Virus record (IMG/VR): IMGVR_UViG_2974514734_000001
Location: 32,683 to 96,682 of that record
Direction: 5' to 3' (one strand)
Origin: a virus
Taxonomy: Duplodnaviria > Heunggongvirae > Uroviricota > Caudoviricetes > Ackermannviridae
Length of the DNA: 64,000 nucleotides
Positions 4,431 to 56,181 of the stretch are shown here, piece after piece; positions within the stretch are counted from its first letter, which is position 1; each line of letters opens with the position of its first letter. The notes beneath the pieces are model-generated. The model searched no databases. It saw only the letters and a list, made by a program, of their open reading frames with translations, and was not told the origin of the DNA. Both the position numbers and the translations under genes were made by a program.

Positions 4431-5276
4431 ATGACCCCGTATGTGTACAGAATAAAATCTAAACAAGGACATTTCTATTACGGATGTCGTTATTCCAAAG
4501 ATTGCCATCCCGATGATTTGTGGGCAACATATTTCACTTCTTCCTCCCTGGTTAAATCTTTAATAGAAGAAAATGGGTTAGAATTCTTTGACACCAAGAT
4601 TGTTATGGTATGTGAAACTCCAGAAGATGCTCTGCGCGTAGAAGGATTATTAATATCAAAGACTCATAAGTTTCCTGGCTGTTTGAATCAATTCCTTTGT
4701 CGTAGAGATGGAACTCCTGTCTACCTTGGCACATATGGTAAACGTGACCCAGAACTAATTGAAAGAATAGCCCAATTACACAGAGGGAAGAAAAGAAGTC
4801 CTGAATTTAGGGAATATATGAAAGCATTAAAAACAGGAACCACTTGGTCTGAAACACAAAGGAATGGTGTCAAGGCTTTCCAACAAACAGAAGCGTACCA
4901 ACAATTAAGAAACAAAATCAATACAACCAATAAAAATAGAACAAAAACTCCCGAAGAGTTGGCTTCCATTTCAACTTCCCTGAGAGGACGTAAGAAGCCC
5001 GCTGGATTTGGGGAAAGGGTATCGGCCACCAATAAAGTAAGAAACTCTTCTCTGAGCATTTGGCAAACGAATAGAGCCAAACCATTACAACACGTTTGGG
5101 CTATGGCTGACCAATTCTATCAATTATGGAAGAATGAAGGTTGGGGACATGAACGATTTTGTAACCGGATGAACGACGGGAATAATATTCGAGTGTTCTA
5201 TAACATGTACAAAATGTTCAAATACGAAAATTGGGTTCCTATGGAAGACCCTGAATGGGTAAAAGATTTCATGTAG
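4431..5276 (+). CDS. GIY-YIG homing endonuclease, Seg-like (T4 segD position)
   Basis: N-terminal YVYRIKSKQGHFYYGCR (GIY-YIG variant), NUMOD-like repeats; paralog of 35958-36680; AAAGGAG RBS. Confidence 0.7.
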   Translation: MTPYVYRIKSKQGHFYYGCRYSKDCHPDDLWATYFTSSSLVKSLIEENGLEFFDTKIVMVCETPEDALRVEGLLISKTHKFPGCLNQFLCRRDGTPVYLGTYGKRDPELIERIAQLHRGKKRSPEFREYMKALKTGTTWSETQRNGVKAFQQTEAYQQLRNKINTTNKNRTKTPEELASISTSLRGRKKPAGFGERVSATNKVRNSSLSIWQTNRAKPLQHVWAMADQFYQLWKNEGWGHERFCNRMNDGNNIRVFYNMYKMFKYENWVPMEDPEWVKDFM

Positions 5277-5785: not shown

Positions 5786-6022
5786 ATGAGAATCAAAAAG
5801 ATAGGTGCAAGCCCATTGACGGGAACAATCTTCCAGGGCACATTGAACACCAAGACCAGTATGTGGGTCGGTGAGAAGACTGATGTGACCGAGGACTGTG
5901 TAGCGGCCACGGCCGAACACTTGCGCCACATTAAAAAGAAATACTGCTGGCCGACAACCGACGGCAAGTTCTTAGTGTTGTCTGCTCAGGTGTATGACAC
6001 TCTCCCTGATGAATTCAAATAA
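5786..6022 (+). CDS. hypothetical protein (78 aa)
   Basis: ORF closely following the previous gene. Confidence 0.35.
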   Translation: MRIKKIGASPLTGTIFQGTLNTKTSMWVGEKTDVTEDCVAATAEHLRHIKKKYCWPTTDGKFLVLSAQVYDTLPDEFK

Positions 6023-6039
6023 TTAAAAGAATTCAATAG

Positions 6040-6073
6040 ACGGGGTTTACTTCTTCAATAAACCCCGTATACT
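6040..6073 (+). promoter_or_regulatory. PeSL-like cassette: 10-bp stem-loop (ACGGGGTTTA/TAAACCCCGT) overlapping a T4-type early promoter (GTTTAC 6045-6050, 17-bp spacer, TATACT 6068-6073)
   Basis: Read directly; the same TTTACTTCTTCAATAA architecture recurs at 43178 and other sites. Confidence 0.6.
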
Positions 6074-6123
6074 TTCATTCCATAAGCAGCACAACACTGA
6101 CTCTGAAATGAAGGAACTACACC

Positions 6124-6588
6124 ATGACAACCGTAAAAATCTCCGTCTGGGCATTCAACAATTTCACCAAATTTGACGCGTTTGTTAAAAACGCTCTGGG
6201 CATCACCAACATAGAATCCTTCACTTCTTATGACCGCGAAGATCAGGTCAAAATGCTTCGTCCTGAAATCGACCTTGACGCAATGCTGAACGCCATCAAG
6301 AATCACGATGACAACCTGGTTGAATTCGAAAACCTCCGCACCTCTATCTTCAAAAAGAACGGTGGAATTCGTAAGCTGAGCAACAAAACCATCAAATATG
6401 TCACCGAAGGGTTCTTTGTGGTGTTCGACTTCATCGAAACCAAGCCGAACGAACTGCGTAAAGATTTAGACGGCAACGTCATCACCCTGAAAATATTTGG
6501 CGAAGCCAAGGCCGATATGATGCGTGACGGTCTGTGTGATGAGACATTCACATACGACGAATATTGCGATCAGTGCCAAGATCTGTAA
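6124..6588 (+). CDS. hypothetical protein (154 aa)
   Basis: ORF with the conserved GAAGGAACTACACCATGAC initiation region. Confidence 0.5.
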   Translation: MTTVKISVWAFNNFTKFDAFVKNALGITNIESFTSYDREDQVKMLRPEIDLDAMLNAIKNHDDNLVEFENLRTSIFKKNGGIRKLSNKTIKYVTEGFFVVFDFIETKPNELRKDLDGNVITLKIFGEAKADMMRDGLCDETFTYDEYCDQCQDL

Positions 6589-6656
6589 TTTGTTCTAAAC
6601 CATTTGAACGGGTATGTTAAAATCATACCCAACCCCTACAAATAGAGGACTATAAC

Positions 6657-17909: not shown

Positions 17910-19061
17910 ATGTTTTACGAATTATTGATTTCTAAAGGCGGTAAACCGCATTTTATCAAGAAGTATTTGAGGATGATTCAATCTTTCAAATATCCTGATG
18001 GTGACTACACCGAATTACACCACATCCTTCCCAAGAGCATGTTCCCTGAATATTCCAAAGACAAGATCAATTTGGCAAGACTTACTGGCAGGCAACATTA
18101 TCTTGCCCATGTGTGTTTGGCCTTGGCTTTCCCGAATTCTGATATGGTATATGCTGTTCTTTTGATGAGCCGTGGGGGTAGGTATACACCAACGGGCATA
18201 AAATTTAATTCTCACCTTTACGAAAAGTTAAGGAAAGAATTTGGACAAAGAATATCCAAACTCACAAAGGGTGTCTCTAAATGCGTCGGGGCAAACAACC
18301 CAATGTATGGGAGAAGAGGAAAGAATAATCCCCAATATGGGTATAAGAGAACTCCAGAGCAAGTCAAGAAAATTACCAAAGGATTGATGAAAATCCATGA
18401 AAGGATGGCTTCTGATCCTGAATATAAAAGGCGGGTTTTAGAGAAACGCCGCGCCAACATGGATTTAGAACAATTTTCTGAACGTGCCAGGAAAGCTAAA
18501 CTTGGGGAACTCAATCCCAATTATGGGAAGGACTTAACCAACTCATTCACACCAGAGCAACGCGCCAAACAGAAAGAAAACGCTCAGAAAGGCATGTTGG
18601 CTAAGATGCCTTGGGAGAAGGGTAAATGGAACCCCGACAATGACGTATATTGGGAGAAAGCTGATCAATTCCTTGAAGCCCTGAATACGATGAAACGTTC
18701 AGAAGCCCTCTTGTTCGTGTATGGAACAAAAGATCTGAAGGCGTTTAATGCCACCAGTGGGATAATCGAACGTTTCAATAAAGGCTGGGAACCATTAAAA
18801 TGCGTAAAATGGTTAAAAAGATACAAGGGTGAAAAAATGAGCTGGAAATTGTTCAAACTGTGTAAAGCGACTGATGAGTTTCTTCTGAAAGCCCGTATGG
18901 AAGGACGTCTCGTGTACACTCCTTACCCAGGCACTACTCGGTTTTGCAACACGCTGAGGAAACAGAAATCAGTTTCTGGGCCGAGACGTTTGATGAAGCA
19001 GGGGATGCTGGCATACAACTCCGGTGATACTCGGCCTTGTGACGGCGGTAAGATCGTCTGA
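17910..19061 (+). CDS. HNH homing endonuclease (Mob-like) with NUMOD-type repeats
   Basis: ELHHILPKSM HNH motif; repeated NPMYGRRGKNNPQYG modules. Confidence 0.8.
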   Translation: MFYELLISKGGKPHFIKKYLRMIQSFKYPDGDYTELHHILPKSMFPEYSKDKINLARLTGRQHYLAHVCLALAFPNSDMVYAVLLMSRGGRYTPTGIKFNSHLYEKLRKEFGQRISKLTKGVSKCVGANNPMYGRRGKNNPQYGYKRTPEQVKKITKGLMKIHERMASDPEYKRRVLEKRRANMDLEQFSERARKAKLGELNPNYGKDLTNSFTPEQRAKQKENAQKGMLAKMPWEKGKWNPDNDVYWEKADQFLEALNTMKRSEALLFVYGTKDLKAFNATSGIIERFNKGWEPLKCVKWLKRYKGEKMSWKLFKLCKATDEFLLKARMEGRLVYTPYPGTTRFCNTLRKQKSVSGPRRLMKQGMLAYNSGDTRPCDGGKIV

Positions 19062-19070
19062 ATAAAGATT

Positions 19071-19111
19071 CCCTTTACTTCATTCTTCAATAACTCTTTT
19101 CAACGTATTAT
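19071..19111 (+). promoter_or_regulatory. degenerate PeSL-like early promoter region (CTTTAC…TTCAATAA…TATTAT), followed by a 5'UTR hairpin GCGCCC…GGGGCGC
   Basis: Shares TTTACTTC…TTCAATAAC with the other cassettes, but the -35/-10 spacing is disrupted by about 10 extra nt. Confidence 0.3.
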
Positions 19112-19180
19112 TGACCTCACTTAAACGAAGCGCCCTGGCAAACGGGGCGCACATTTGAACTGAAACAGGAAGACTATACC

Positions 19181-21202
19181 ATGGCAGAATTCAAACCCTT
19201 CGCAACGGCAGTTAATAACAACGTGCTGGCGATGTCCGCAACTGGTCTGTTCATGACCAATATCGATAAAGATGCTCTTTGGGATCTGTATCTGGCATCT
19301 TTCCCTGCTGGTACTAACCCGCTGTACCGCGAACGTACTGAACACGATTGCACCTGCTGTAAACAATTCATCCGTAACATCGGCGGTGTTGTCACCATCG
19401 ATTCAGAGCTGAACGTGATTTCCATCTGGGACAACATTGATCTGGGTAATGAATATGACGTGGTGGCTGCGGCTCTTTCCGCTTATGTCAAACAACACGC
19501 AATCGTCGATGTTTATTTTAACGATTCTGCCAAAGTCGGCCTGTCTCACAATCACGAATCTGGTGAAGATGGCAAAATCCGTACTTACAATCATTTCCAT
19601 ACCCAATTACTTGGTAGCTATGTTCTGCGTCCGGACGCAATCGCTTCGAAAAAAGGTGAAATCCGCCAGGCTATTGAATTGTTTGAACGCGGTCTGCGTG
19701 AAATTACTCTGGAATCAGCTGAAATCGTTCTGGAACTGATTGACCAGAATTCTCTGTATCGCGGCGCAGAACACAAAGCAGCAGTGAAGGGATTTGTTGA
19801 AACCAAAAAGGCATATGAACAAATCCCCGAATCAGCCCGTTCTCTGTGGACATGGCATACTGGATACCGTTCAAACAATCATGTTCCACACGGCATCCGT
19901 AACACAGTTATCGGCACTCTGCTGACAGATATCAGCGAAGGCGTGGAACTGGAAAAGGCTGTTAAGTCGTTTGAATCCAAAGTTGCTCCGGCGAACTACA
20001 AACGTCCGACCGCGCTGGTTTCAAAATCCATGATCGAAAACGCTCAGAAAGAAGTTATTGCTCTGGGTTTGGAAGACTCACTGGCGCGTCGTTATGCGGT
20101 TTATGATGATCTGACAATCAACAACGTTTTGTTCGCAGATCTGGCCGCTCAGAAAGCGATGGATCCGTTTGCACAGCTGGCCGCAGAAGTGAAAACTCCG
20201 ACTAAGTCCTTAGAAAAAGTTGAAGAGATCAGCGTTGATGATTTCCTGAGCAATGTTCTACCAAAAGCGCATTCAATGGAAGTGCTGGTAGAGAATTCTC
20301 ATACTAGCAACCTGATGTCCCTGGTTGCTCCGGCGAACCCAGATGCACCTAACCTGTTCAAGTGGAACAACGGTTTCTCCTGGTCTTACAACGGTGAAGT
20401 GGCCGATTCCATTAAAGAACGTGTAAAGGCTGCTGGCGGTAAAGTTGACGGGTATCTGCGCGTTTCCTTGGCGTGGCACAATAACGACGACCTCGATCTG
20501 CATATGTTCTTTAACAATATGGAGCACGTTTACTTCCGTGATCGTCGCTCTATGACAGGTGCCCATCTGGATATCGATATGAACGGTATGGATGGTATCG
20601 ATCCAAACCGCGCTCCGGTGGAAAATATCATCTTTACAGATGAAAGCAAGCTGCGCGATGGTGAATACCGTTTCGAAATCCACAACTACAATCAACGTGA
20701 AAAGATCGACGAAGGGTTTGAAGTCGAAGTAGAATACAAAGGCGCAACGCATCGTTTCAGCCATCCTGGCCTGAAAGATCAGGGGCGTATCACTGCAGTC
20801 ATCCTGACTGTTAAAGACAAACAAGTTGTTGGCATTAAGTCCGAACTGGCTAATGTTGATAAGTCTAAAGAAGTTTGGGGTATCAAGACTGCGACCTTCC
20901 AGAAAGTACAGCTGGTCCTGAATTCACCAAACCATTGGGATGGGGAGCAAACTGGTAACAAGCATGTGTTCTTCATTCTTGAAGGTTGTGCTAATCCTGA
21001 AGGTACTCGTGGTTTCTACAACGAATATCTGAAGCCAGAACTGGATAAACATCGTAAGGTTTTTGAAATGTTGGGTAGTAAAATGAAAGTCCAGCCGAAT
21101 GAAAACCAACTGTCCGGTCTGGGATTCTCGACGACGCAACGCAACCACGTGTTCGTAAAAGTGTCCGGCGCGTTTAACCGTACTGTAAAAGTCATTTTCT
21201 AA
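19181..21202 (+). CDS. hypothetical large protein (673 aa)
   Basis: AGGAAG RBS plus conserved TATACCATGGC context; no Walker motifs or known signatures recognised. Confidence 0.5.
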   Translation: MAEFKPFATAVNNNVLAMSATGLFMTNIDKDALWDLYLASFPAGTNPLYRERTEHDCTCCKQFIRNIGGVVTIDSELNVISIWDNIDLGNEYDVVAAALSAYVKQHAIVDVYFNDSAKVGLSHNHESGEDGKIRTYNHFHTQLLGSYVLRPDAIASKKGEIRQAIELFERGLREITLESAEIVLELIDQNSLYRGAEHKAAVKGFVETKKAYEQIPESARSLWTWHTGYRSNNHVPHGIRNTVIGTLLTDISEGVELEKAVKSFESKVAPANYKRPTALVSKSMIENAQKEVIALGLEDSLARRYAVYDDLTINNVLFADLAAQKAMDPFAQLAAEVKTPTKSLEKVEEISVDDFLSNVLPKAHSMEVLVENSHTSNLMSLVAPANPDAPNLFKWNNGFSWSYNGEVADSIKERVKAAGGKVDGYLRVSLAWHNNDDLDLHMFFNNMEHVYFRDRRSMTGAHLDIDMNGMDGIDPNRAPVENIIFTDESKLRDGEYRFEIHNYNQREKIDEGFEVEVEYKGATHRFSHPGLKDQGRITAVILTVKDKQVVGIKSELANVDKSKEVWGIKTATFQKVQLVLNSPNHWDGEQTGNKHVFFILEGCANPEGTRGFYNEYLKPELDKHRKVFEMLGSKMKVQPNENQLSGLGFSTTQRNHVFVKVSGAFNRTVKVIF

Positions 21203-21239
21203 TTGATTTTACCACAAATTCGTAATAAGGAACAATGAA

Positions 21240-21611
21240 ATGTTTGATCATGCAACCCGTTTAAAACTGCGTTTCAACTCTAACAAAGGTCTGCTGTCTG
21301 TTGAGCAGGTTTGGGATCTGAACCTGAATGCCCTAAACGAACTGGCGAAAGACCTCAGCCGTCAGGTGAAGGAAGCCGCCAGCGATGAAGAAGATTTCAT
21401 CGGCGTGAAAAGCGCAGTCGACTCTCAGTTACAACTGCGTTTCGATATCGTGAAAGCGATCATCGGTGTTAAACTGAAAGAACGTGACGAAAGCGCAACC
21501 GCCGCCGAACGTAAAGCGAATAACCAGGCGATCATGGAACTGATCCAGCGTAAGAAACAGCAGGAACTGGAAGGCCTCTCTGTTGAAGAACTGGAAAAAC
21601 TCCTGAAATAA
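21240..21611 (+). CDS. hypothetical coiled-coil protein (123 aa)
   Basis: ORF, AAGGAA RBS. Confidence 0.45.
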   Translation: MFDHATRLKLRFNSNKGLLSVEQVWDLNLNALNELAKDLSRQVKEAASDEEDFIGVKSAVDSQLQLRFDIVKAIIGVKLKERDESATAAERKANNQAIMELIQRKKQQELEGLSVEELEKLLK

Positions 21612-21632
21612 TCTGTCGGCTCCGGCCTGAGC

Positions 21633-21660
21633 AACCCCGCTATGTGCGGGGTTTCTTTTG
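21633..21660 (+). terminator. terminator CAACCCCGCtatgtGCGGGGTTTCTTTT (near-copy of 4364-4390)
   Basis: GC stem plus T-run. Confidence 0.7.
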
Positions 21661-21670
21661 GAGAAATATT

Positions 21671-21907
21671 ATGAAACAAATTACTAAGACAGTACAAATC
21701 ACCCAATATCAAACGGATGACGGCAGAGTGTTCGATACTCTTGGTCAGGCCGAACATTATGAGAAGATGAAGTCCGGTATTCGCAAGGTATGCTCTTCTT
21801 GTGATGGCAAAGGTCGCGACTCTCCGTCGGGCGACGGGCGTGATATGACGACTTGTCATTATTGTGGTGGTAAAGGCTGGGTAGAAAAGAAAGAGATATG
21901 GGGTTAA
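21671..21907 (+). CDS. small DnaJ CR-type zinc-finger protein (two CxxCxGxG motifs)
   Basis: CSSCDGKG and CHYCGGKG. Confidence 0.5.
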   Translation: MKQITKTVQITQYQTDDGRVFDTLGQAEHYEKMKSGIRKVCSSCDGKGRDSPSGDGRDMTTCHYCGGKGWVEKKEIWG

Positions 21908-22317
21908 TGAAACCTGTCATCTGTGATTACTGCGGTCAACCTGCCCAATACGTCGGGGGCGATGCTGTATACCCCCACCGCCCCGACCTCCGCAATCTGA
22001 AGTTCTGGGTATGCTCGCCATGCGACGCTCGTGTGGGTTGCCATACCCATGGGGATGGTAGACAACCTCTGGGAAGGATGGCGAATGCCGCTCTCCGTGC
22101 TGCTAAGCAGGAAGCTCATAGGTCGTTTGACCCTATCTGGAAAAGTGGGCAGAGGAGCAGGAGTGATGCTTACAGCTGGCTGGCTCATAATCTGGGGATC
22201 AAGAAGCGCGATTGCCATATCGGCTTGTTCGATATCGATATGTGCCGTAAAGTAGTCGCTGTGTGTAATCAACTAAAGGCACAAGATAATGTCAAAGGAA
22301 ATACAAGAAGCATTTGA
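21907..22317 (+). CDS. zinc-finger protein (DUF3268-like: CDYCG…IYPHRPDL…FWVCSPCDARVGCH)
   Basis: Start overlaps the previous stop (TAATGA). Confidence 0.45.
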   Translation: MKPVICDYCGQPAQYVGGDAVYPHRPDLRNLKFWVCSPCDARVGCHTHGDGRQPLGRMANAALRAAKQEAHRSFDPIWKSGQRSRSDAYSWLAHNLGIKKRDCHIGLFDIDMCRKVVAVCNQLKAQDNVKGNTRSI

Positions 22318-22540
22318 AAAATTATCTCAGGTAATGACCGACTGCAACCGCCGGAATTATTGTGATGAAGCGTATACCAAATTGAAAACTGCTGTTGAAA
22401 CCGAGCTGGCAGGTCTTTCCGTTTTCAAAGATATTCAGACCGAAGTGCTATATCTGTCGGATGAAGATTTAAGGCGTTGTCCCCGCAAGATTTACCAATT
22501 ACTGGATCGTTTGGTGAAAGTGGGGGTGAATAATGGGTAA
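22289..22540 (+). CDS. hypothetical protein (83 aa)
   Basis: ORF overlapping its neighbours by a few codons. Confidence 0.4.
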   Translation: MSKEIQEAFEKLSQVMTDCNRRNYCDEAYTKLKTAVETELAGLSVFKDIQTEVLYLSDEDLRRCPRKIYQLLDRLVKVGVNNG

Positions 22541-23258
22541 TCGTGAAGGGATTAAACTCACACCAGAACTTCTGAAGTCACATATTGCTGAAGTGATTTA
22601 TGAAGACCGTGAAGTTGGTGGTCACCGCGTCATTACATGCCATTTCAAGATGGACAATGGCTTTGTCGTCTGGGGTAAGAATAGTTCCACATCGGTAGAC
22701 CCTGCCAACTTCGATGAAGAAATAGGCAAGCAGCTGGCCTATGAAAAGACCCTTTCTCAACTGTGGGAACTGGAAGCATATCGCGCGATAGTAGAAAAGC
22801 AGATCATCGATGTGTCCGCCAAAGATGCTAAGATCAACATTGATGAATATGTGTCAGAAAGGGGATCGATACATGAGATGGGTGGTTCTGAATTCCTTGA
22901 GGGTAAAGGACAATCCGTCGTGTTTCGTCATCCCAAGGATCCAAGTCGGGGATTTCGAGTTGAATTTGTTCGCACCGATAATGAACGTTATGACGAACGG
23001 CGTAATGGTGAAGCAAGATCTTTGGTGGAAGCGTATCTTCGCTCGTTTATGACTTCTGAAGATCTAAATTCTGAACTTGTCTTGCGTTTGGCGAAAACGT
23101 GTAATGCTGCTTCAGGGGATTATCCGTGGTGTGACCTGTCTGAAGACAAACGCCAAGCAGCTTGTGATCGTGTTAAGAAATTCTTGTTAGATCCGAAAGC
23201 CCAACCTGGTGATTCCGTGGGGGCGCTGTATAGAGCCATCGTGGTGTCATACTTGTAA
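22533..23258 (+). CDS. hypothetical protein with possible Gp49/66-like N-terminal domain
   Basis: …CHFKMDNGFVVWGKNSS…PANFDEEIGKQLAYEKTLSQLWELEAY; from memory, low confidence. Confidence 0.35.
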   Translation: MGNREGIKLTPELLKSHIAEVIYEDREVGGHRVITCHFKMDNGFVVWGKNSSTSVDPANFDEEIGKQLAYEKTLSQLWELEAYRAIVEKQIIDVSAKDAKINIDEYVSERGSIHEMGGSEFLEGKGQSVVFRHPKDPSRGFRVEFVRTDNERYDERRNGEARSLVEAYLRSFMTSEDLNSELVLRLAKTCNAASGDYPWCDLSEDKRQAACDRVKKFLLDPKAQPGDSVGALYRAIVVSYL

Positions 23259-23525
23259 TTCTTCAAAAGTCTTTCAAAATCAATAACGTCCGGCAAATTG
23301 CTGGGCGTTTCAATTAATAAGCCAAGGTATAATGGCCCAATTGTAAAGCGAGGGAAATTACTTTGCCCAAACCATTTTTGCGTTCAGGAGTTGACTCTCT
23401 TGACTCACAGTTTAAACCCAGCGAAGTTTTAATCCAACAGATTGAAACTAATCGCGAATTCATAGAACACATGCTGGCAAAGCCGGAAGGTGAAGCCGCT
23501 CAAACCACCAAAGAAGGTAATAACG

Positions 23526-25742
23526 ATGATTGAATCATTAACATTTAAAAATGCGGTAGCAACTGTCGCGCCGTCTAACCATGTAATCGTTGTGGACATC
23601 TCCGGTTCCATGTATCGTTCACTTCCAGAAGTCCGTAAGCATCTGAAGGAAAATCTCCCGTCTCTGGTTAAACCAGAAGATACCGTCAGCATTCTTTACT
23701 TTTCATCCCGTGGTGATTTCGGTACGGTATTCGCTGGCCGTCAGATCAATAGCGCGACCGATCTCAGTGAAATCAATAAACTGATTGACCGCTTCCTGCA
23801 ACCGTCAGGTTGTACGGGATTTGTAGAACCTCTGAAGTTGGCTGCTGAAACCGCGATGAGCCTGAACAAACCTGGTTATGTCAATAACCTGGCGTTCATG
23901 ACCGACGGCTATGACAACTGCTGGCGCTCTAATGAAATCCTGGATGCCGCTGAAGTACTGCCCAAAGCGTTTGATAACATTACCTTCATCGAATACGGTT
24001 GGTACTGTAACCGCGAACTGCTGTCTCTGATGTCCGAGCGTTCTGGCGCGACCCACGTGTTTGCCGAAGGTCAGACTGAATATCAGACCGAATTGGAAAA
24101 TGTACTGAAATCATCTACGCCGAAAGTGGTTGTTGATGTCCCCCTGGTTTACACTCATGCCATCTACGTTGAAAACGGCGTGGCAACTGTGCTAGCCGTA
24201 CAACCAGATGAAGAACACCCGATTGGCCACGTCAGCATCCCTGAAAGCGTTTCTCAGCTGTGGGTTGTAAACCCCGACATGATCGACCAGCTGGATAATC
24301 TGGCAGACACCCAGGCGGCATACGTGCTGGCATTCTATGGCGTGTACACCATGGACGCCGATCTGGTCTGGGCCGCGCTGAAGAAGACGGGTGACGTCCG
24401 CTTCATCAAACAATACAGCAACTGTTTCACCAAGCAGGACTATTCCAACATCAAAGTCGATCTGACCCAGGCTATCGTGGATGAAACTCTGCGCGGCGTA
24501 GATGGCATCGATTACAATATGGTTCCAGCTGAAGATGCAACGACCATTGTTGATGTCTTGACCTACCTGGCCGAAGCCGATGTCTCTGTTGTCACTAAGC
24601 ATCCACTGTTCTCTTACAACAGTATTGGGCGCGGTACTGTACAGAAAGTTGACGACACCGAAGACAAATTGGCCGAAGAGATTGCGAATGCGACTTCTAA
24701 AGAAGAGCGTAAAGCCCTGGCGCTCAAACTGGCCGAGCACGAAGATTGGACCCCCGAATTCAATCCAGCAGATGATAAAGGGATTGTCCCGATTAGCAAT
24801 CTGGTCTATAATTCAGAACGTCCTAACATTAGTGTACAAACAGTTCAACACGGAACGGTTGTTGTACCCGAGTTCGTACAGAAGAAATATGAACTTCCTG
24901 AAGAGTTGGGAACCTGGCGTTATCGCAATTACACCATTGTCAAGGATGGTATCATCAACCTGAAAACAATGCCTATTACTGCGGATTCTCCGATTGTTCG
25001 GGCTAAGGTGGCACAGGATTTGACTGCCATGGGTGTTCATGTGTTTGGTGGACCGGAAGTCTTCATTGTAAATCTGGAAAGTGTCCCAATGGTTAACCGC
25101 GCTATGACAAAGAATATCAGTGCTGCTGAATTCTTTGCAGACAATGTGCGACGTGAAGCATTGAAGGCGAAACAAAAAGTTCTGAAATTCTATCGTGATG
25201 AGCTGGTTGGTAAAGGCAATGCTGCTGGTTTGGCTTCAAAATATGGCAAAGAAGCGGCTGATTTCCTGTCAGCAAACGGCATTCGCGACTATGGATTTTC
25301 ACCGAAGACTTCTTCTGTAGAATCAACCGATGTCTATATGAGTCGTGAATTGAATGTGAAAATCAAAGGCGCATCTTCACTGCCGAGCATCGCGTCTGTT
25401 ATCAAAAAACAGACGGACGGTAAAAAACTGAATGTCGCTGATCAGCTGATCGCTAATGCCCTGGCTGAATACAATGCATTCGTTAAATCACCGATGATCA
25501 CCAGTGTACCGGAAGAGACTCAGAAAAAGCTGATCGAAAGTTGGATTGGTGATGCAGCAAAAGCAGCTATCAACGAAGTTCGCGCTCTGAACAAAACGCT
25601 GTCCAAGGTAGTTTATGGGATTGTTGCAGGCCATGGTTGGTTTACCGACCTGGATTTGGAAGAATCCACTATGGATGTGGAAGTTGATGGGGTGAAATAC
25701 ACCGTCACTGCCGAACTGGCCGAAAAAGAAGTCAAAATCTAA
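23526..25742 (+). CDS. von Willebrand factor A (vWA) domain protein, 738 aa from the ATG start (track ORF 23490-25742 is 750 aa from an upstream GTG)
   Basis: MIDAS motif VVDISGSMY (DxSxS) plus downstream T/D residues; ATG at 23526 with GAAGG RBS (the track uses an upstream GTG at 23490). Confidence 0.65.
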   Translation: MIESLTFKNAVATVAPSNHVIVVDISGSMYRSLPEVRKHLKENLPSLVKPEDTVSILYFSSRGDFGTVFAGRQINSATDLSEINKLIDRFLQPSGCTGFVEPLKLAAETAMSLNKPGYVNNLAFMTDGYDNCWRSNEILDAAEVLPKAFDNITFIEYGWYCNRELLSLMSERSGATHVFAEGQTEYQTELENVLKSSTPKVVVDVPLVYTHAIYVENGVATVLAVQPDEEHPIGHVSIPESVSQLWVVNPDMIDQLDNLADTQAAYVLAFYGVYTMDADLVWAALKKTGDVRFIKQYSNCFTKQDYSNIKVDLTQAIVDETLRGVDGIDYNMVPAEDATTIVDVLTYLAEADVSVVTKHPLFSYNSIGRGTVQKVDDTEDKLAEEIANATSKEERKALALKLAEHEDWTPEFNPADDKGIVPISNLVYNSERPNISVQTVQHGTVVVPEFVQKKYELPEELGTWRYRNYTIVKDGIINLKTMPITADSPIVRAKVAQDLTAMGVHVFGGPEVFIVNLESVPMVNRAMTKNISAAEFFADNVRREALKAKQKVLKFYRDELVGKGNAAGLASKYGKEAADFLSANGIRDYGFSPKTSSVESTDVYMSRELNVKIKGASSLPSIASVIKKQTDGKKLNVADQLIANALAEYNAFVKSPMITSVPEETQKKLIESWIGDAAKAAINEVRALNKTLSKVVYGIVAGHGWFTDLDLEESTMDVEVDGVKYTVTAELAEKEVKI

Positions 25743-26103: not shown

Positions 26104-26170
26104 TCCCCAACGGTTTGTTGGGGATTTTTACTTTTAGGGGGTTTACTTGAATAAACATTTGCCGTATTAT
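26104..26170 (+). promoter_or_regulatory. PeSL-like cassette: hairpin TCCCCAAC…GTTGGGGA, then early promoter GTTTAC (26141-26146), 18-bp spacer, TATTAT (26165-26170), containing TTCAATAAC
   Basis: Read directly. Confidence 0.5.
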
Positions 26171-26223
26171 TCAATAACTGGCTAACGTGGGGTTGGTCAG
26201 ACATTGAATAGGTTGGTTATAAC

Positions 26224-26463
26224 ATGTCAAATAAAAAAGTAGAAACGACAGTAGAAATTGATCGTAATTGGGGATTACTCCGCGCTAAAGGTTTTCGTCG
26301 TGTTTATATGACCAAGGAAGTTTATGTTCAGCGTCGCGACGTTATTATCAGCAAGAAAGGTAAAGAGTGGGTTGCTGAAGAAGTTGACATTGAAACGGGT
26401 GTCGTCGGTAAGGTTAAAGCCAAGGCCGCGATCCTCTTCGCTCTTCTGAAGCATATCAATTAA
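26224..26463 (+). CDS. hypothetical protein (79 aa)
   Basis: ORF downstream of the cassette. Confidence 0.45.
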   Translation: MSNKKVETTVEIDRNWGLLRAKGFRRVYMTKEVYVQRRDVIISKKGKEWVAEEVDIETGVVGKVKAKAAILFALLKHIN

Positions 26464-26478
26464 TTCTATAAATTATGG

Positions 26479-26504
26479 CGGGGTATGATTACCCCGCTTA
26501 TTTG
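26479..26504 (+). terminator. hairpin GCGGGGTAtgatTACCCCGC plus TTATTTG
   Basis: 8-bp stem. Confidence 0.45.
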
Positions 26505-26522
26505 AAATGTAGGAACTATACC

Positions 26523-27981: not shown

Positions 27982-28065
27982 TCTGAATACGATAGTTTAT
28001 TGAAACCCTTTACTCAACATGGTGACAGCCCTATCATTTTATCCAATGAAATAAGGAGAATCACC

Positions 28066-28755
28066 ATGAAACGTTTAATCATCGCGGTTGTGCTGGCTGG
28101 TCTGACACTTCCTGCCACCGCCAAGCTGAATTCTACAGGTGAAAAACTGTGGTCTGATCTTTCCTACTGTGCTGGGTTCTCCCAAGCCGTGGCTATAGAC
28201 AAAACTGGTTCCATAGAGAACTTTGCTGAACTCTGGGCCACAGGTAATGTCACAGATGCCGTTGTAAATGCTGGTATTGAGTTTAATCGATATAAGCAAG
28301 GCGCGTTCAACCTGAAAGGATATATGAACGACGAAGAATTTAACCGAGGAGGCATGGAGGCGAGCGATCTTATTATGACTGGTCGTATGGGTACACAAGG
28401 ACGAATGACCGTAAGACAGTGCCGTTCTCTTCCTTCTCCAGCATTACAAAAAGGTGTGCAGGTTGGCCGACGTCAGCTGGATCTCATCAATGATGGAAAC
28501 CAATGTATTCGAGTATTTGAATACAGCGCTGATCAAGAATCTGATCGAAGACTGAAAAAGGAATGGCGGACTCGCGCCCTTGGCCTGAGAGCATGGCTGG
28601 TGGAAAATGATCATTATTATGAAGACCGTGTACAGAATGGTTTGAAAGATCTTTCCACTAATTTGTCTGTCAATCTAGACGACCCAAGGCTTTCGCGTGA
28701 ACTCAAGCAAACACGGATTGACTGTGACAATATGATGAAGGAGAACGAAAGATGA
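28066..28755 (+). CDS. secreted/periplasmic protein (signal peptide MKRLIIAVVLAGLTLPATA)
   Basis: AAGGAG RBS; cleavable N-terminal signal. Confidence 0.5.
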   Translation: MKRLIIAVVLAGLTLPATAKLNSTGEKLWSDLSYCAGFSQAVAIDKTGSIENFAELWATGNVTDAVVNAGIEFNRYKQGAFNLKGYMNDEEFNRGGMEASDLIMTGRMGTQGRMTVRQCRSLPSPALQKGVQVGRRQLDLINDGNQCIRVFEYSADQESDRRLKKEWRTRALGLRAWLVENDHYYEDRVQNGLKDLSTNLSVNLDDPRLSRELKQTRIDCDNMMKENER

Positions 28756-29072
28756 GAAACATAATATTCTTGTTATTCTTTTCTATGTTGGCATCATTCC
28801 AAGTTGTGGCAACTCCGGCTAGCAAATTGAATATGTGTGCGGCCTGGTTGTCTACTTATCAACAATTTCACCCTGATGATAAAGATACATCCATCCTTTT
28901 ATCAGATTATGAAGGTGAGTTGAAACGCCTTGATCTCTACAGCGTGGATCAAATAGAGAATGCGCTTGATTTACCCATGATGGAGTCCGCTGCCGACAAT
29001 AGCAAACAGACGATCAAAGATCTGACTATGTGTCGGGAAATAGCGACTAATTTCGTTGGAAATCAAAGATAA
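28752..29072 (+). CDS. secreted protein (signal peptide)
   Basis: MRNIIFLLFFSMLASFQVVA…; overlaps the previous stop (ATGA). Confidence 0.45.
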   Translation: MRNIIFLLFFSMLASFQVVATPASKLNMCAAWLSTYQQFHPDDKDTSILLSDYEGELKRLDLYSVDQIENALDLPMMESAADNSKQTIKDLTMCREIATNFVGNQR

Positions 29073-29120
29073 TTTCAGGTTAAAATTTAACTTCCATTGA
29101 ACTGAAAGGTGTATTTCGTG

Positions 29121-30083
29121 ATGATCATTACCAAAAAGATCGCTGATGCGGTCGTTGAAAAGAATAAAATGTTCGCACCTAACAAAGCAAAGGTTATTCT
29201 GATTCACGAAGACGGGCGCGTCATCTTCGCTGAAAAGTTCGAGCAGGGTTGTACTTTCTGGTTCGCAGACACTATGCGCGAAAGCAAGCTGCAGGGCATC
29301 ATCTATAAATTGACTCTGGTTGCCAAGCGCAATGACCAGGGTGATTGGGTTACGGTCTGCGATTTCAGCTCTAAGGTTGAAACGAAAGCCAAAACCCGCC
29401 AAGAAAGAATTTTAGAGGCTCAGGAAAAACTTCGAGTCGCTCGCACATCATCCGCGGAGAAGCCGGAAATCAAACCAGCCGTTATGCCTGTCACCAAACT
29501 GCCTCCAGTGAGTGAAAAATCTGTTGAGCAGTACGCCGAGAAGCGCAAGGGTGACGGCATGTCTGTTTCAAAGATGTGTAAGATTGTTGAGCCTTTTAAG
29601 GGCGATTCTCCACATGAGCCGAATCCAGTATCTGAATCCCAGCGTTTGGTGAAACTGGAAGACGGCTATGTTGTGGAGAAGTCTGTTTCGACAGTAGAAC
29701 CGTTCTGTCCAGATACAGCAAAAGTCAAATCGCTGGCTGAAAAAGTTCACGGTTCAGAATTCATCTCCCTGCGCGAACTCGAACCACCTACCCGCCGCCG
29801 GATCGCAAATGAGTTATTTGTGTCCTTCAGACCTGACGGGAAGATCATCCTGTGTAAAGCCCTGCGGGATTCTCTACCTTGGACAACCTTGAACATGGTA
29901 GTGACACGCAACTTCAATAGATTCGGTATCATGCAAGGCAAGGATTACAACGTTAACCAGAGCGGAACATATGCAAATCGTCATATGTGCGACAAATTGT
30001 CTTTCCCAAACGATTCTGGCACTATTCGTGTTCGTTTAGAATGGGATGAAAGTTTGAACATGTATGTCGGTGATATAAAATAA
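29121..30083 (+). CDS. hypothetical protein (320 aa)
   Basis: ORF. Confidence 0.45.
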   Translation: MIITKKIADAVVEKNKMFAPNKAKVILIHEDGRVIFAEKFEQGCTFWFADTMRESKLQGIIYKLTLVAKRNDQGDWVTVCDFSSKVETKAKTRQERILEAQEKLRVARTSSAEKPEIKPAVMPVTKLPPVSEKSVEQYAEKRKGDGMSVSKMCKIVEPFKGDSPHEPNPVSESQRLVKLEDGYVVEKSVSTVEPFCPDTAKVKSLAEKVHGSEFISLRELEPPTRRRIANELFVSFRPDGKIILCKALRDSLPWTTLNMVVTRNFNRFGIMQGKDYNVNQSGTYANRHMCDKLSFPNDSGTIRVRLEWDESLNMYVGDIK

Positions 30084-30094
30084 TTCTATAATAC

Positions 30095-30126
30095 AAGGGC
30101 GGTTATTATTAAACCGCCTTTATTTG
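30095..30126 (+). terminator. terminator AAGGGCGGTTattattAACCGCCTT plus TATTTG
   Basis: 10-bp stem. Confidence 0.55.
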
Positions 30127-30139
30127 AGAGATCTATATT

Positions 30140-30808
30140 ATGAACAACAAGAGCCGTATTATCATCGGGGCTGACCAGGGTAATTTATATTTTGAAAGAT
30201 CTGGTGTTGTCGCCCACGCTATCCTTCCCACTGGAATTTCCGTTTATTGTGTGGAACATCCTGACCCTGCAGTTAAACGTCTTTGCTATGTCTCCCGTGA
30301 AAATGGACTAATTGTATTGCCAGAAGGCGCGATTATGCGTGCACGATTTTGGCCGATCGATTTTAATTCCATGAGCAATAGGGAGATCGACGCCCGTTTC
30401 TTCGCATATAATATGAACCGGACTCTAATAAATGAAACTCAGAGAGTTGTTCATTTCGACAATGAAACTCATGGAGTGACGTTAGAATTCAGAACTCGTG
30501 GTGAAGCTCTTCAGGTGAAGAAATCAAGCTGGAAAACTGAAGGGACGTTCACACATGATTATGCGTTAATCGACAAATTGTGCAATCAGTTTCGCATTAG
30601 CCTGACTGCCAACGACGATTTAGGTCAGTATGTTGTATGGACAGCCCGTTCACCACATATGAACGGTATCATGATGGAGAGTGAAACTCGTAATCGCGCT
30701 GTGCTCCAACTGCTGCTGTTAGAAGCGTATTCTCGCAACCCGTTGGAATATCTGTCTCGGGAACAGATTGATAACGCGCTTTCTCATTGTAACCGTCTGG
30801 AGGTGTAA
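30140..30808 (+). CDS. hypothetical protein (222 aa)
   Basis: ORF. Confidence 0.45.
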   Translation: MNNKSRIIIGADQGNLYFERSGVVAHAILPTGISVYCVEHPDPAVKRLCYVSRENGLIVLPEGAIMRARFWPIDFNSMSNREIDARFFAYNMNRTLINETQRVVHFDNETHGVTLEFRTRGEALQVKKSSWKTEGTFTHDYALIDKLCNQFRISLTANDDLGQYVVWTARSPHMNGIMMESETRNRAVLQLLLLEAYSRNPLEYLSREQIDNALSHCNRLEV

Positions 30809-30809
30809 T

Positions 30810-31097
30810 ATGTCCGGCGTATGGTGTGATGTATTGTTGGTAAGATTTTCAAACGGGATGGATAACCAGATTATTTCATTCTTTTATCCTGTTCCCTTTT
30901 CTTCTATGGGTCTGACCGTCAAGCGCGTACTTGACATAGAAGAAAAACTCAACGCCATGCCGTATATGGCACGACCACACGTGCTGGGTTGTGAACTGTT
31001 AAACGAAATGATGATTGACGAGAATCTTGTTGAAACAATTATCACGCGTGAACAGATGAAAACCATACTGTCTCAGGGAGAACCCCATGTCGAATAA
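30810..31097 (+). CDS. hypothetical protein (95 aa)
   Basis: GGAGGTG RBS. Confidence 0.4.
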   Translation: MSGVWCDVLLVRFSNGMDNQIISFFYPVPFSSMGLTVKRVLDIEEKLNAMPYMARPHVLGCELLNEMMIDENLVETIITREQMKTILSQGEPHVE

Positions 31098-32404: not shown

Positions 32405-32487
32405 ACGCTTTATTCAATAGTATTTGTTAGGTAAGCTGTAGTCCTCTTGTAGTGAAACATCGTAAACAACCAACTGGAGTAATCCGA

Positions 32488-42528: not shown

Positions 42529-43166
42529 TGAATATCACTCCATCCCAGACCGGATACGAGCACTTAATGGTGTTTATTGCGATTCAGGGGGCAAAAGAAG
42601 GCATCATCAGTTCTGAATATTCTGGAACGATGCGCCTGGCTGATTATGTTGCTCCCGAAGCGTTTATCAAGAAATGTATCGACGCATGGTGCCTTTATGC
42701 TCTCGGCACGTATCCTACTCCTCCGGCAGGTGAGCTACTGTTTACCGTTCCGACCCCAGCCGCTGGCGACACAGACGCGATCTTTGCTGATATGTTGGCC
42801 AAAGGTTATCTGACATATGACAGTGCTCACGGCGTGTATGATTTTTCTGCGCTGAATCGTATCTTCGGATTCACCATAACTTCTGAAGCCAATATTCCTG
42901 ATTATGGAATACTAGCATGGGGCGTCGACGGTTTGGGGGCAACATATGCATCTTCGGATGTCGGTCCTGTGTTGATAGACCCAGGGGTGACAATGGAGCA
43001 ATACATGTCACAATTCCCTCAACATAATGTAACCGGAAGCGACATCATTATTGTCTATCCTGGTTCTAATGCGCTACCCCGTTTGGTCACGGGTTGGCAG
43101 CCACAATTGAAGGACATTGTCTCTGGGATCAGGTTCCATATTCCCGTTGTCAATCCAACACCTTAA
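42528..43166 (+). CDS. hypothetical protein (212 aa)
   Basis: ATGA overlap with the previous gene. Confidence 0.45.
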   Translation: MNITPSQTGYEHLMVFIAIQGAKEGIISSEYSGTMRLADYVAPEAFIKKCIDAWCLYALGTYPTPPAGELLFTVPTPAAGDTDAIFADMLAKGYLTYDSAHGVYDFSALNRIFGFTITSEANIPDYGILAWGVDGLGATYASSDVGPVLIDPGVTMEQYMSQFPQHNVTGSDIIIVYPGSNALPRLVTGWQPQLKDIVSGIRFHIPVVNPTP

Positions 43167-43177
43167 ATTATTCAATA

Positions 43178-43222
43178 AAAGGGGCAAAAGCCCCTTTACT
43201 TCTTCAATAACCCACGTATAAT
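43178..43222 (+). promoter_or_regulatory. PeSL-like cassette: terminator hairpin GGGGCaaaaGCCCC, then early promoter CTTTAC (43194-43199), 17 bp, TATAAT (43217-43222)
   Basis: TTTACTTCTTCAATAACCCACGTATAAT, near-identical to the 6045-6073 cassette. Confidence 0.6.
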
Positions 43223-43270
43223 TCTAAACATAAGCAGTACGACACCAACTTGAAACGAAGGAACTATATC

Positions 43271-43639
43271 ATGACCAAAACTGAATTGAACAACATTCTG
43301 AACGTTGCTGGGTACAAGAATATTATTCGTGGGAACAACAAAATCGCGCGTGACCGTAGCAACAAAATCATTAAGGGGTTCCCCCTGTGTAAAACTGGTC
43401 CGCTCGATATCAGCAACCCGTCCAAGCGCTTGTTTAAAGACTTATTGCGTGAACTCGGCACTAAAGGCCTGGTGCTAGATAAAAAGGATGACCTGGTTGA
43501 CTTTGGCATCGCGGTTATGAAGATTGCCAAATTCAAAATAACTCTGTGCGTACAGACAATTCAGACATATGACTACTCTGAAGGACGTGACCCGAATTAC
43601 GAAACAAAATATGTCAACGTAAGGATTGAAGGGTTATAA
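43271..43639 (+). CDS. hypothetical protein (122 aa)
   Basis: Conserved GAAGGAACTATATCATGAC start context. Confidence 0.45.
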   Translation: MTKTELNNILNVAGYKNIIRGNNKIARDRSNKIIKGFPLCKTGPLDISNPSKRLFKDLLRELGTKGLVLDKKDDLVDFGIAVMKIAKFKITLCVQTIQTYDYSEGRDPNYETKYVNVRIEGL

Positions 43640-43650: not shown

Positions 43651-43675
43651 GGGGGCTTGATGCCCCTTTCTTTTC
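43651..43675 (+). terminator. terminator GGGGCttgatGCCCC plus TTTCTTTTCG
   Basis: GC stem, T-run. Confidence 0.55.
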
Positions 43676-46981: not shown

Positions 46982-46986
46982 TTACA

Positions 46987-49388: not shown

Positions 49389-49427
49389 AAATACTTCAAA
49401 AATAATTTAAAAATTTATTGAAAAAGA

Positions 49428-49457
49428 CTTTACTCTTCAATAATCATGCACTATTAT
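49428..49457 (+). promoter_or_regulatory. early promoter CTTTAC (49428-49433), 18 bp, TATTAT (49452-49457), preceded by an A/T-rich UP-like tract and containing TCTTCAATAAT
   Basis: Read directly. Confidence 0.5.
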
Positions 49458-49534
49458 AGTTCACATAGGGCGGTACACAACACCCCGCCGAATGAAAAGT
49501 GAAACGACCCAACTACATTATGAGGAATTACATC

Positions 49535-50023
49535 ATGGCTACTACCAAAACTCTGATCACCAACGGCACCATCTCTTTTGAACTGAACACCGAAGTTGCA
49601 AAAGTTGAAATGTTCCGCATCGCTCAGGCAGCTGGCTTCACTGGTGGCAAAACTTCCTTCATGAATCTGCTGAACGGCAAAGTGAAAGCGACCAACGGCT
49701 TCACCCTGGTAGAGCAGGTTGTCGTAGACAAAGCCGTGGTTGCCAAGACTGCTGACAAGGTTGGCATGCTGAAAGACCTGGGCCATGACATCCACGTTGT
49801 CGAAGCGAACACCGAAACTTACGGCACCATCGTAGTCGGTAAAGGTCGCATTCAGCTGAACCCGCTGAACAACGGAACCTTCTCCGTGATGGTATTCCCG
49901 AAAAAGGGTTATGACAACAGCGATATCGTGAAAGCCGCTGGCGGTGAAGCGAAATCCCAGTATGTCAAAATGGGTAAACTGAGCGCCGACGCAGTAGAAA
50001 CTCTGGTGAACAAACTGGCTTAA
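49535..50023 (+). CDS. hypothetical protein (162 aa; A/K/V/G/T-rich), probably a highly expressed early gene
   Basis: GAGGAA RBS; 5'UTR hairpin GGGCGG…CCCGCC; bracketed by terminators. Confidence 0.5.
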   Translation: MATTKTLITNGTISFELNTEVAKVEMFRIAQAAGFTGGKTSFMNLLNGKVKATNGFTLVEQVVVDKAVVAKTADKVGMLKDLGHDIHVVEANTETYGTIVVGKGRIQLNPLNNGTFSVMVFPKKGYDNSDIVKAAGGEAKSQYVKMGKLSADAVETLVNKLA

Positions 50024-55617: not shown

Positions 55618-55842
55618 ATGATTACGATTTATTCCAAACAAGGTTGTGCGCAATGTTTACAAGCTGAAAACATCTGTCGCATTCGCGGTATTGAACACCA
55701 AATTCTGAAGCTAGACAAAGATTACAAGCTGGAAGAATTACAGAAAATCACTGGTAAGCAACGCATGTCTATGCCCGTGATTGTTCTGGCTGACCAAACC
55801 GTGACCGACGTTACTGGACTCGCCGCAAGTTTGAAACGCTGA
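55618..55842 (+). CDS. glutaredoxin/NrdH-like redoxin
   Basis: CAQC active site, thioredoxin-fold size. Confidence 0.6.
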   Translation: MITIYSKQGCAQCLQAENICRIRGIEHQILKLDKDYKLEELQKITGKQRMSMPVIVLADQTVTDVTGLAASLKR

Positions 55843-55847
55843 TCTTT

Positions 55848-55897
55848 CAAAGCCCCTCATTGAGGGGCTTTACTTTTGAAACCTTTCCGCCTATACT
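55848..55897 (+). promoter_or_regulatory. PeSL-like cassette: terminator AAAGCCCCTCattgAGGGGCTTT, then early promoter CTTTAC (55868-55873), 18 bp, TATACT (55892-55897)
   Basis: Read directly. Confidence 0.6.
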
Positions 55898-55947
55898 TCC
55901 CAGTAATTCATTGGCAAACGCCACAAATTGAAAGCGGGTACTACATC

Positions 55948-56181
55948 ATGACCAACTCTGAAATATATCATGCTTCTATGCATTATCACGACCTACGCGC
56001 CCGTCCAGGACACGCCAAACAAAAAGCATTCTGGGTGGCAGAACTCAGATTACGCCGTGCTGTCGTTAACCACCAAATAATCATGAATCGGAAAAACGAC
56101 AAATCACCGTTGTTGGCAGATTCTTATCTTGAACTCCGCACAGCCTATGAACAAGCCAAACAGCACGTAATAGGAGCATAA
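55948..56181 (+). CDS. hypothetical protein (77 aa)
   Basis: ATG downstream of the cassette promoter (the track uses an upstream non-ATG start). Confidence 0.4.
   Translation: MTNSEIYHASMHYHDLRARPGHAKQKAFWVAELRLRRAVVNHQIIMNRKNDKSPLLADSYLELRTAYEQAKQHVIGA

Follow-up and report, generated by a model that had tools for sequence, protein, structure and literature searches.

Repeated promoter-like stem-loop cassettes in Salmonella phage barely and other Ackermannviridae resemble the PeSLs of T4-like phages

Promoter early stem-loops (PeSLs) are composite elements in which an AT-rich region, a sigma-70-like promoter, a variably placed stem-loop, a Shine-Dalgarno sequence and a start codon are combined (Arbiol 2010, PMC2839356; Comeau 2014, PMC4122927). 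In the phages RB49/phi1, T4/PST and KVP40/nt-1 they adjoin open reading frames (ORFs) whose function is unknown and which vary from one close relative to another (PMC2839356, PMC4122927). Their hallmarks include a preference for hyperplastic regions, demonstrated activity as promoters and terminators, and mini-circles that arise when neighbouring cassettes recombine. The PST/T4 PeSLs have the consensus TTTACW-N17-TAYWAT, those of nt-1 carry a stem of the form A3-4G3-loop-C3T3-4, and a variant with a Mot box is termed PmSL (PMC4122927). The PeSL literature that we found concerns phages other than Ackermannviridae, and ViI, Vi01 and CBA120 go unmentioned in Comeau 2014 (PMC4122927). Here we describe repeated cassettes in a 64,000-nucleotide stretch of DNA (the window) that is 100% identical to Salmonella phage barely (MT074477.1; Kuttervirus, Ackermannviridae; record positions 32683-96682, + strand). 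These are likely to be composite cassettes that unite terminator, promoter, leader and recombination site and that correspond, in the Ackermannviridae, to the PeSLs of T4-like phages. An earlier note on this stretch had listed six such cassettes and likened them to PeSLs; its observation was real and is partly confirmed here, although it was overstated.

A search for TTTACT-N16/17-TAnnnT across the whole genome (157,920 bp, to which all motif counts refer; genome coordinates equal window coordinates plus 32682) returned 10 matches, all on the + strand. Seven lie in annotated intergenic DNA, and correcting the start of barely_98 adds the match at 55869 as the eighth; intergenic DNA makes up 7.5% of the genome, and a placement of 8/10 has a binomial P of ~1e-6. 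The total of 10 is by itself unexceptional (mean 5.3, maximum 13 in shuffles), and the significance rests on placement, not number. On intergenic placement and family-wide conservation we reject a chance origin of the cassettes. When up to 3 mismatches were allowed, the 16-mer of these cassettes had 11 matches versus 0.86 expected, with exact occurrences only at 6046 and 43195, and a generic sigma-70 scan also listed 43195, 49429 and 55869. Outside the window, strict TTTACT copies are found at genome positions 107826 and 150817, and a looser TTTACA copy at 99792.

We distinguish two classes of unit: in class 1 a TTTACT -35 stands at promoter spacing, and in class 2 a TTCAATAA box is followed after 12 nt by a -10, without a -35. 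The class-1 cassettes of the window, all before the start of a gene, are the following:

6010..6126, + strand: c1 (6046), before barely_32; -35 TTTACT 6046-6051, -10 TATACT 6068-6073, ATG 6124; AT-rich upstream region; inverted repeat ACGGGGTTTA (6040-6049) / TAAACCCCGT (6059-6068) around the -35 (6040-6068, -14.1 kcal/mol); TTCAATAA at 6054-6061; CA-rich leader from about CATAAGCAG (6081-6089); ribosome-site block GAAGGAACTACACC at 6110-6123.

26105..26226, + strand: c5 (26142), before barely_58; -35 TTTACT 26142-26147, -10 TATTAT 26165-26170, ATG 26224; terminator-like hairpin CCCCAACGGTTTGTTGGGG (26105-26123, -20.2 kcal/mol), then tandem TTTTTACTTTT; second inverted repeat TTGAATAA (26148-26155) / TTATTCAA (26166-26173), overlapping the -10.

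27990..28068, + strand: 28009 cassette, before the i-spanin gene barely_63; -35 TTTACT 28009-28014, -10 TATCAT 28032-28037, ATG 28066; TTTATTGAA upstream, without a GC hairpin.

43163..43273, + strand: c2 (43195), before barely_83; -35 TTTACT 43195-43200, -10 TATAAT 43217-43222, ATG 43271; hairpin AAAGGGGC (43178-43185) / GCCCCTTT (43190-43197), -13.6 kcal/mol, its T-run being the start of the -35; TTCAATAA upstream at 43171-43178 and in the spacer at 43203-43210; leader CATAAGCAGTACGACACCAAC; ribosome-site block TTGAAACGAAGGAACTATATC.

49400..49537, + strand: c3 (49429), before barely_91; -35 TTTACT 49429-49434, -10 TATTAT 49452-49457, ATG 49520 or 49535; AT-rich UP-like region upstream, with aaaataatttaaaaatttattgaaaaag at 49400-49426; AT-rich inverted repeat TTATTGAA (49415-49422) / TTCAATAA (49436-49443) bracketing the -35, with no GC hairpin there; leader hairpin GGGCGG..CCGCC at ~49468-49489 (-10.6 kcal/mol).

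55841..55950, + strand: c4 (55869), before barely_98; -35 TTTACT 55869-55874, -10 TATACT 55892-55897, ATG 55948; hairpin AAAGCCCCTC / GAGGGGCTTT at 55849-55871 (-16.6 kcal/mol); small leader hairpin TGGCAAACGCCA; ribosome-site block GGGTACTACATC.

The annotated TTG start of barely_98 (55876-56181), at 55876, sits within the promoter spacer of c4. This start is probably wrong, because a conserved ribosome site and the ATG at 55948 give a product of 77 aa, the length of all homologues.

A TTTAC followed by a TATAAT-like hexamer is present at all six positions reported earlier, but the spacing is proper at five only. At the sixth, 19071-19111, which had been taken for a degenerate copy, relatives do not conserve the TTTAC, which stands 27 nt away from the -10, and the site belongs to class 2; the window member at 28009, before the i-spanin gene, had been missed. 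Only 6046 and 43195 are near-identical, with the same 16-mer and similar leaders; the remaining sites have no more than the consensus in common. The GC hairpin that had been ascribed to every site is found at 4/6, being absent at 49429 and weak or unconvincing near 19074. The genes placed downstream are indeed of unknown function, having no Pfam match and falling into PHROGs families of unknown function.

To place the cassettes in a wider context, loci of relatives (L-numbers below) were collected from IMG/VR through anchor proteins: the primase (21), a vWA protein (36) and barely_36 (9). Primase identity across the 21 genomes compared ranges from 100% down to 60%. A scan of IMG/VR for the exact 16-mer had returned at least 119 loci, mostly chance matches in unrelated contigs, and was replaced by these searches. 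A 98-nt stretch of c2 has 776 matches at 80-100% identity, spread over 283 phage records and typically numbering 2-4 in a genome; the records apparently all belong to Ackermannviridae (phages of Salmonella, Escherichia, Klebsiella, Dickeya, Shigella and Serratia, and a few oddly named ones). The same 98-nt copy had no match in 5,426 E. coli genomes and 72,556 plasmids, and a host or plasmid origin of the cassette was rejected on that ground.

The cassettes are co-oriented and syntenic across the family. At the same positions in relatives, c2, c3 and c4 are present in 21/21 genomes; of the 22 scanned for c5 and the 28009 copy, all have the former in synteny and 19 have the latter, and c1 occurs in 8/8 covering its site; in 8 other Kuttervirus genomes c1 is near-identical, with at most 1-2 differences. 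The cassettes are therefore not peculiar to the window, further copies being present elsewhere in the genome and family-wide in relatives, and they are ancient rather than recent arrivals. Nor do they generally mark recently acquired genes, as had been proposed: the genes behind c3 (barely_91, 19/19), 19086 (barely_50, 21/21) and 28009 (barely_63, 20/21) are family-wide core genes, and barely_58 is also present in most relatives. In the GenBank record of LIMEstone1 the c2 and c3 orthologues already carry the labels "putative middle promoter" and "factor-independent terminator", so that the promoter/terminator reading as such is not new.

Among 81 distinct sites of the family, 63 contain a perfect inverted repeat of at least 6 bp, as compared to 28% of shuffles. 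GC-rich repeats directly adjoining the -35 make up 30 of these, repeats that enclose the -35 another 24, and 7 are in the spacer or the -10; at genome position 150817, as at c3, the AT-rich inverted repeat TTATTGAA/TTCAATAA brackets the -35. Stem pairing is kept through changed sequence in orthologues, by compensatory changes (GGGGC/GCCCC, GGGAC/GTCCC, GCCTGG/CCAGGC, GGCCGG/CCGGCC). Across the 21 genomes the -35, the spacing and the -10 are constant and the 3' half of the spacer varies, a pattern that a functional sigma-70-type promoter would be expected to leave. Within the class-1 spacer TTCAATAA is conserved amid variable adjoining bases, an AT-rich consensus aat...T..AaAa.atTt lies upstream, and the bases preceding the -10 are mostly CC or CG, with TGn absent. 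The terminator hairpin upstream of c5 was seen in both orientations between copies, CCCCAACAAACGTTGGGG and CCCCAACGTTTGTTGGGG being exact reverse complements (L161:12541-12990 versus window 26105-26123), and it looks, from sequence, as if this stem-loop may have flipped between copies.

Leaders are of more than one type. A CA-rich leader starting CATAAGCAG is common to c1, c2 and genome position 150817, and others carry a GC leader hairpin. Those at 49468-49489 and 19130-19150 lie ~10-20 nt 3' of the -10 and show compensatory changes between genera; such hairpins may be 5' stabilisers or processing sites. An Rfam scan of the whole window gave no family match, and no known RNA element accounts for the leader. 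The cassettes further share a ribosome-site block, TTGAAAnGAAGGAACTAYAYC-ATG, whose last part, ACTAYAYCATG, occurs 8 times on the + strand and 0 times on the - strand (~0.15 expected per strand by our own estimate):

5329, 6116, 19173, 26515, 43263 and 55940 in the window and 107877 and 151494 in the genome, + strand: ACTAYAYCATG sites.

The block also follows other promoter types, namely a late-like CTATAAAT plus hairpin before barely_59 and barely_66, and since it occurs on genes with other promoters it is a general strong translation start of the phage and not private to the cassettes. It could act as a strong ribosome site or as an operator for the RegA-like repressor barely_46. Late-promoter-like motifs (CTATAAAT, CTAAATAC) were also seen upstream of structural and other genes (26470-26522, 30085-30139, 46986-47009 and many intergenic regions), often inside a GC hairpin or with one following, and look like a possible late-class counterpart of the cassettes.

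At several of these sites relatives carry a replaced ORF behind the cassette, the junctions falling within the cassette itself; where ORFs have been inserted, duplicated cassettes stand on either side, and one copy is non-syntenic. The slot behind c2 holds at least 8 unrelated ORF families in ~20 genomes: barely_83 is found only in barely and one other genome, and elsewhere the slot is occupied by a 91-, 111-, 123-, 77- or 109-aa ORF or a barely_32-like one, a barely_32 homologue being present in L145. Behind c1, nine Kuttervirus genomes carry 3-4 families: barely_32, an unrelated 98-aa ORF, a 93-aa ORF, or a 145-aa ORF 38% identical to barely_32. The replaced segment at c1 runs from the ATG exactly to the next conserved intergenic module, where the similarity of all variants resumes. 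The 3' boundaries of these two slots are:

6589..6656, + strand: 3' boundary of the c1 slot; TTTGTTCTAAACC, hairpin GGGTATG..CATACCC and ribosome-site block AAATAGAGGACTATAAC before barely_33.

43651..43675, + strand: 3' boundary of the c2 slot; terminator-like hairpin and T-tract after barely_83.

At c2, phage CBA120 shares the cassette of barely but not the ORF behind it, which is unrelated; breakpoints fall at the ribosome site and at the downstream terminator, and similarity resumes at CCCCTTTCTTTTCGCTAATTAAGG. L127 and L129 have flanks that are 98-100% identical, and identity drops to 35-40% only in the stretch that runs from the ribosome site to the following terminator, returning at ~+363. 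L129 and L144 are ~77% identical upstream and then 100% identical from ATAAGCAG for more than 140 nt, and since identity switches there, this junction lies inside the cassette. In L139 and L141 the slot ORF is 96% identical and the flanking proteins 75-81%. The ORF downstream of c5 is replaced in several of the 22 genomes, and barely_98 is missing from about half of the relatives, in which c4 stands directly before barely_99.

L135, compared with L134, has an extra 121-aa ORF between duplicated copies of the hairpin and -35 (a direct repeat of ~25 bp), and L161, compared with L157, has an extra 74-aa ORF between 44-bp duplicates of the hairpin and -35 of c5. In phage PC3 (Aglimvirinae) the tail sheath and tail tube genes are separated by a 96.7%-identical cassette, a non-syntenic copy that precedes a barely_83 homologue of the same PHROG with 29% identity.

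In L134 and L135 (Kuttervirus) the primase is ~77% identical to that of LIMEstone1 and the RegB-like and barely_82 proteins are 97-98% identical, which by sequence comparison indicates that the barely_81-barely_82 region may be a larger recombinant block ending near c2. Homing-endonuclease genes (NUMOD3, HNH-like, GIY-YIG) at 4431-5276, 17910-19061 and 35958-36680 are present in some relatives only (barely_29 in 4/8, barely_49 in 4/21) and form a separate source of variation that is not bounded by cassettes. Homologues ~48% identical to the vWA-domain protein barely_56 (23526-25742) sit on viral contigs of 174-180 kb, which we take to be the size of RB43/RB16-like phages, and this gene is therefore shared beyond the Ackermannviridae.

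A second class of unit emerged from the site near 19074:

19086..19183, + strand: class-2 unit before barely_50; TTCAATAA 19086-19093, 12-nt spacer, -10 TATTAT 19106-19111, ATG 19181; leader hairpin at ~19130-19150 (-17.6 kcal/mol); ribosome-site block ACAGGAAGACTATACC; a TTTAC at 19074-19078 sits 27 nt from the -10.

19086-19111 in the window; 107072, 111272, 139482 (- strand), 142476 (- strand), 146870 (- strand) and 1624 (- strand) in the genome: class-2 sites (TTCAATAA-N11-14-TATAAT).

In the 21 genomes at the 19086 locus, TTCAATAA, the 12-nt distance, TAT(A/T)(T/A)T, a leader hairpin with compensatory changes and the ribosome site are all conserved. Orthologues retain TTCAATAA-N12-TATATT and lose the TTTAC, and a degenerate class-1 copy at 19074 was rejected. 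Across the genome TTCAATAR-N10-14-TAnnWT has 12 matches versus 1.0 in shuffles, 10 of them intergenic, and the class-2 -10 frequently lies within the loop of a terminator hairpin. The geometry is that of T4 MotA-box promoters, with the box 12 +/- 1 bp from the -10 and no -35, but the box itself, TTCAATAA, is unlike the T4 MotA box (a/t)(a/t)(a/t)TGCTTtA, and no TGCTT box was found. Class-1 units retain the -35, unlike T4 middle promoters, where the MotA box replaces it; a likeness to T4 middle promoters and PmSLs lies in the LIMEstone1 label on the c2 and c3 orthologues.

In architecture the class-1 cassettes follow the PeSLs closely: an AT-rich upstream region, a stem-loop, TTTACT-N17-TATAMT, a leader, a Shine-Dalgarno sequence and an ATG. 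At the sequence level, TTTACT-N16/17-TAT(A/T)(A/C)T fits the PST/T4 PeSL consensus, and some stems resemble the nt-1 type. As with PeSLs, an ORF may lie between two cassettes in one phage and be represented by a single cassette in a relative, with junctions within the cassette. The cassettes differ from PeSLs in their host family, which is Ackermannviridae and not T4-like myoviruses, in numbering ~10 copies per genome, in a stem-loop that mostly abuts or brackets the -35 instead of lying between -35 and -10, in serving core genes at several copies and in being conserved family-wide at each position. The reading in the earlier note is thus partly supported: architecture, consensus and ORF replacement behind 6046, 43195, 26142 and 55869 agree with PeSLs, and the claim that the cassettes bound recently acquired genes fails in general.

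Resemblances to other phage elements are more partial. The -35 of T4 early promoters is GTTTAC. The cassettes share with these promoters (Hinton 2010, PMC2988021) a TTTAC-type -35, 17-bp spacing, a TATAAT-like -10, an UP-like region and extra conserved positions beyond the hexamers, and differ from the T4 "uber" early promoters (UP/-35/TGn/-10) in having no TGn extended -10. Like phage morons, they can form a self-contained promoter, leader, ORF and terminator between core genes, as in the PC3 copy between tail sheath and tail tube; unlike in morons, the ORF changes behind a regulatory part that recurs, conserved, at fixed slots throughout the family. To our knowledge, no Alt/Mod-type system has been described in Ackermannviridae.

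If the cassettes work as we propose, the stem-loop beside or around the -35 would stop or attenuate transcription from the upstream gene, taking the form either of a GC-rich hairpin, with a T-run in which the -35 begins, or of the AT-rich inverted repeat TTATTGAA/TTCAATAA. A host sigma-70-type promoter, (C)TTTACT-N17-TAT(A/T)(A/C)T, with an AT-rich UP-like region upstream and no TGn, would then initiate a leader of ~40-60 nt, either CA-rich and unstructured or containing a GC hairpin, that would lead into the strong shared ribosome-site block TTGAAAnGAAGGAACTAYAYC and the ATG. Each cassette would in this way supply the following gene with its own insulated transcription and translation start. 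Because the 80-120-nt units are near-constant across the family and recurrent within the genome, they would also act as homology patches for recombination between co-infecting relatives, and ORFs would then be swapped, gained or lost as precise promoter-to-terminator units. Promoter activity with the host RNA polymerase, early timing and termination are inferred, as is the view that recombination at the cassette, rather than later selection on it, causes the gene exchange.

Several observations weigh against this proposal. Three of the seven window cassettes precede core genes, and at ~10 per genome the copies are far fewer than in RB49/phi1. The hairpins of c2 and c4 fail the standard intrinsic-terminator rule, their T-run TTTACTTCTT being interrupted and short of 5 T in 8, and a plain sigma-70 promoter leaves the conserved TTCAATAA of the spacer unexplained. 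Intervals without a class-1 cassette are also variable, namely 21202-23490 (21 ORF families) and 28755-32892 (27). In the literature on Ackermannviridae and Kuttervirus that we searched, no transcription-start, reporter or termination data were found. Moreover, ~40% of the thymidines in ViI-like virion DNA are hypermodified (PMC5889632), which could alter the reading of T-rich hexamers by sigma-70, and the early promoters of CBA120 were stated not to be findable by informatics (Kutter 2011). Because other variable intervals lack cassettes, as this crude interval control shows, the link between cassettes and plasticity is non-exclusive and no statistical association is established; the same control led us to reject the cassettes as the sole route of gene turnover. 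Variable genes make up 3/7 of those adjacent to cassettes versus ~9/58 of the others, a comparison that is unconvincing alone.

The cassettes might instead be ordinary, vertically inherited terminator and promoter punctuation, with copies alike through a shared fit to polymerase and ribosome and with nearby gene turnover that they do not cause. Their synteny in the genomes fetched per locus (9-22) agrees with this, as do the core genes behind 49429, 28009 and 19086, the variable intervals without cassettes, and the occurrence of the ribosome-site block on genes that have no class-1 promoter. We nevertheless regard it as unlikely, for punctuation of this kind does not account for identity breakpoints that fall within the cassette, for inserted ORFs flanked by duplicated cassettes, for the near-identical PC3 cassette at another locus before a gene only 29% identical, or for a leader 80-100% identical across subfamilies whose genomes are reported to be ~59% similar. 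Constraint at the RNA level has also to be considered: the leader and ribosome-site block could be an operator for a translational repressor or nuclease (the RegA-like barely_46, the RegB-like barely_81) or a stability element, with the promoter likeness secondary. RegA and RegB homologues are annotated in the window, the leader and block are conserved as strongly as the promoter, ACTAYAYCATG is in excess on the + strand (8 versus ~0.15 expected), and the leader hairpins show compensatory changes. This explanation appears very unlikely to us, since the -35, the -10 and their spacing are conserved whatever the leader type, the block also follows other promoter types, and no Rfam family matches.

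More specific to the TTCAATAA box is the alternative that the units are regulator-dependent "middle" promoters, with the TTCAATAA/TTATTGAA box bound by a phage or host protein that activates from the MotA-box position in class 2 or represses over the -35 in class 1. The class-2 pattern speaks for it, with 12 matches versus 1.0 in shuffles (10 intergenic), with a 12-nt geometry equal to that of T4 MotA-box promoters (12 +/- 1 bp) and with a box that at 19086 is conserved across genera when the TTTAC is not; so do the retention of TTCAATAA amid variable bases in the class-1 spacer, the "putative middle promoter" label in LIMEstone1 and the analogous PmSLs described by Comeau 2014 (PMC4122927). 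Class 1, however, conserves a good -35 at the right spacing, so that an activator is unnecessary, the distance from box to -10 differs between the classes (6 versus 12 nt), and the inverted boxes are equally explicable as an RNA or DNA stem-loop. Homologues of MotA and AsiA are moreover reported absent from ViI-like phages (Kutter 2011). On balance we think such middle promoters decidedly unlikely. It is correspondingly doubtful, but conceivable, that the box is the recognition site of a phage-encoded transcription factor in a family reported to lack MotA and AsiA. Such a factor would stand in for the -35 contact at class-2 units, as MotA does in T4, and at class-1 units, where inverted boxes bracket the -35, it would shut the early promoters off. 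The cassettes would in that case encode an early-to-middle switch of a new kind, doubling as recombination sites for gene exchange.

Read as equivalents of PeSLs, the cassettes would extend the PeSL mode of modular gene exchange past the T4-like phages. ViI-like phages are widely used in biocontrol and in reporter-phage engineering, and the cassettes provide a candidate early promoter consensus for the whole family. The four sharply bounded slots would be obvious places in which to search for host-takeover and anti-defence genes, and in which a payload might be inserted while core functions are spared.

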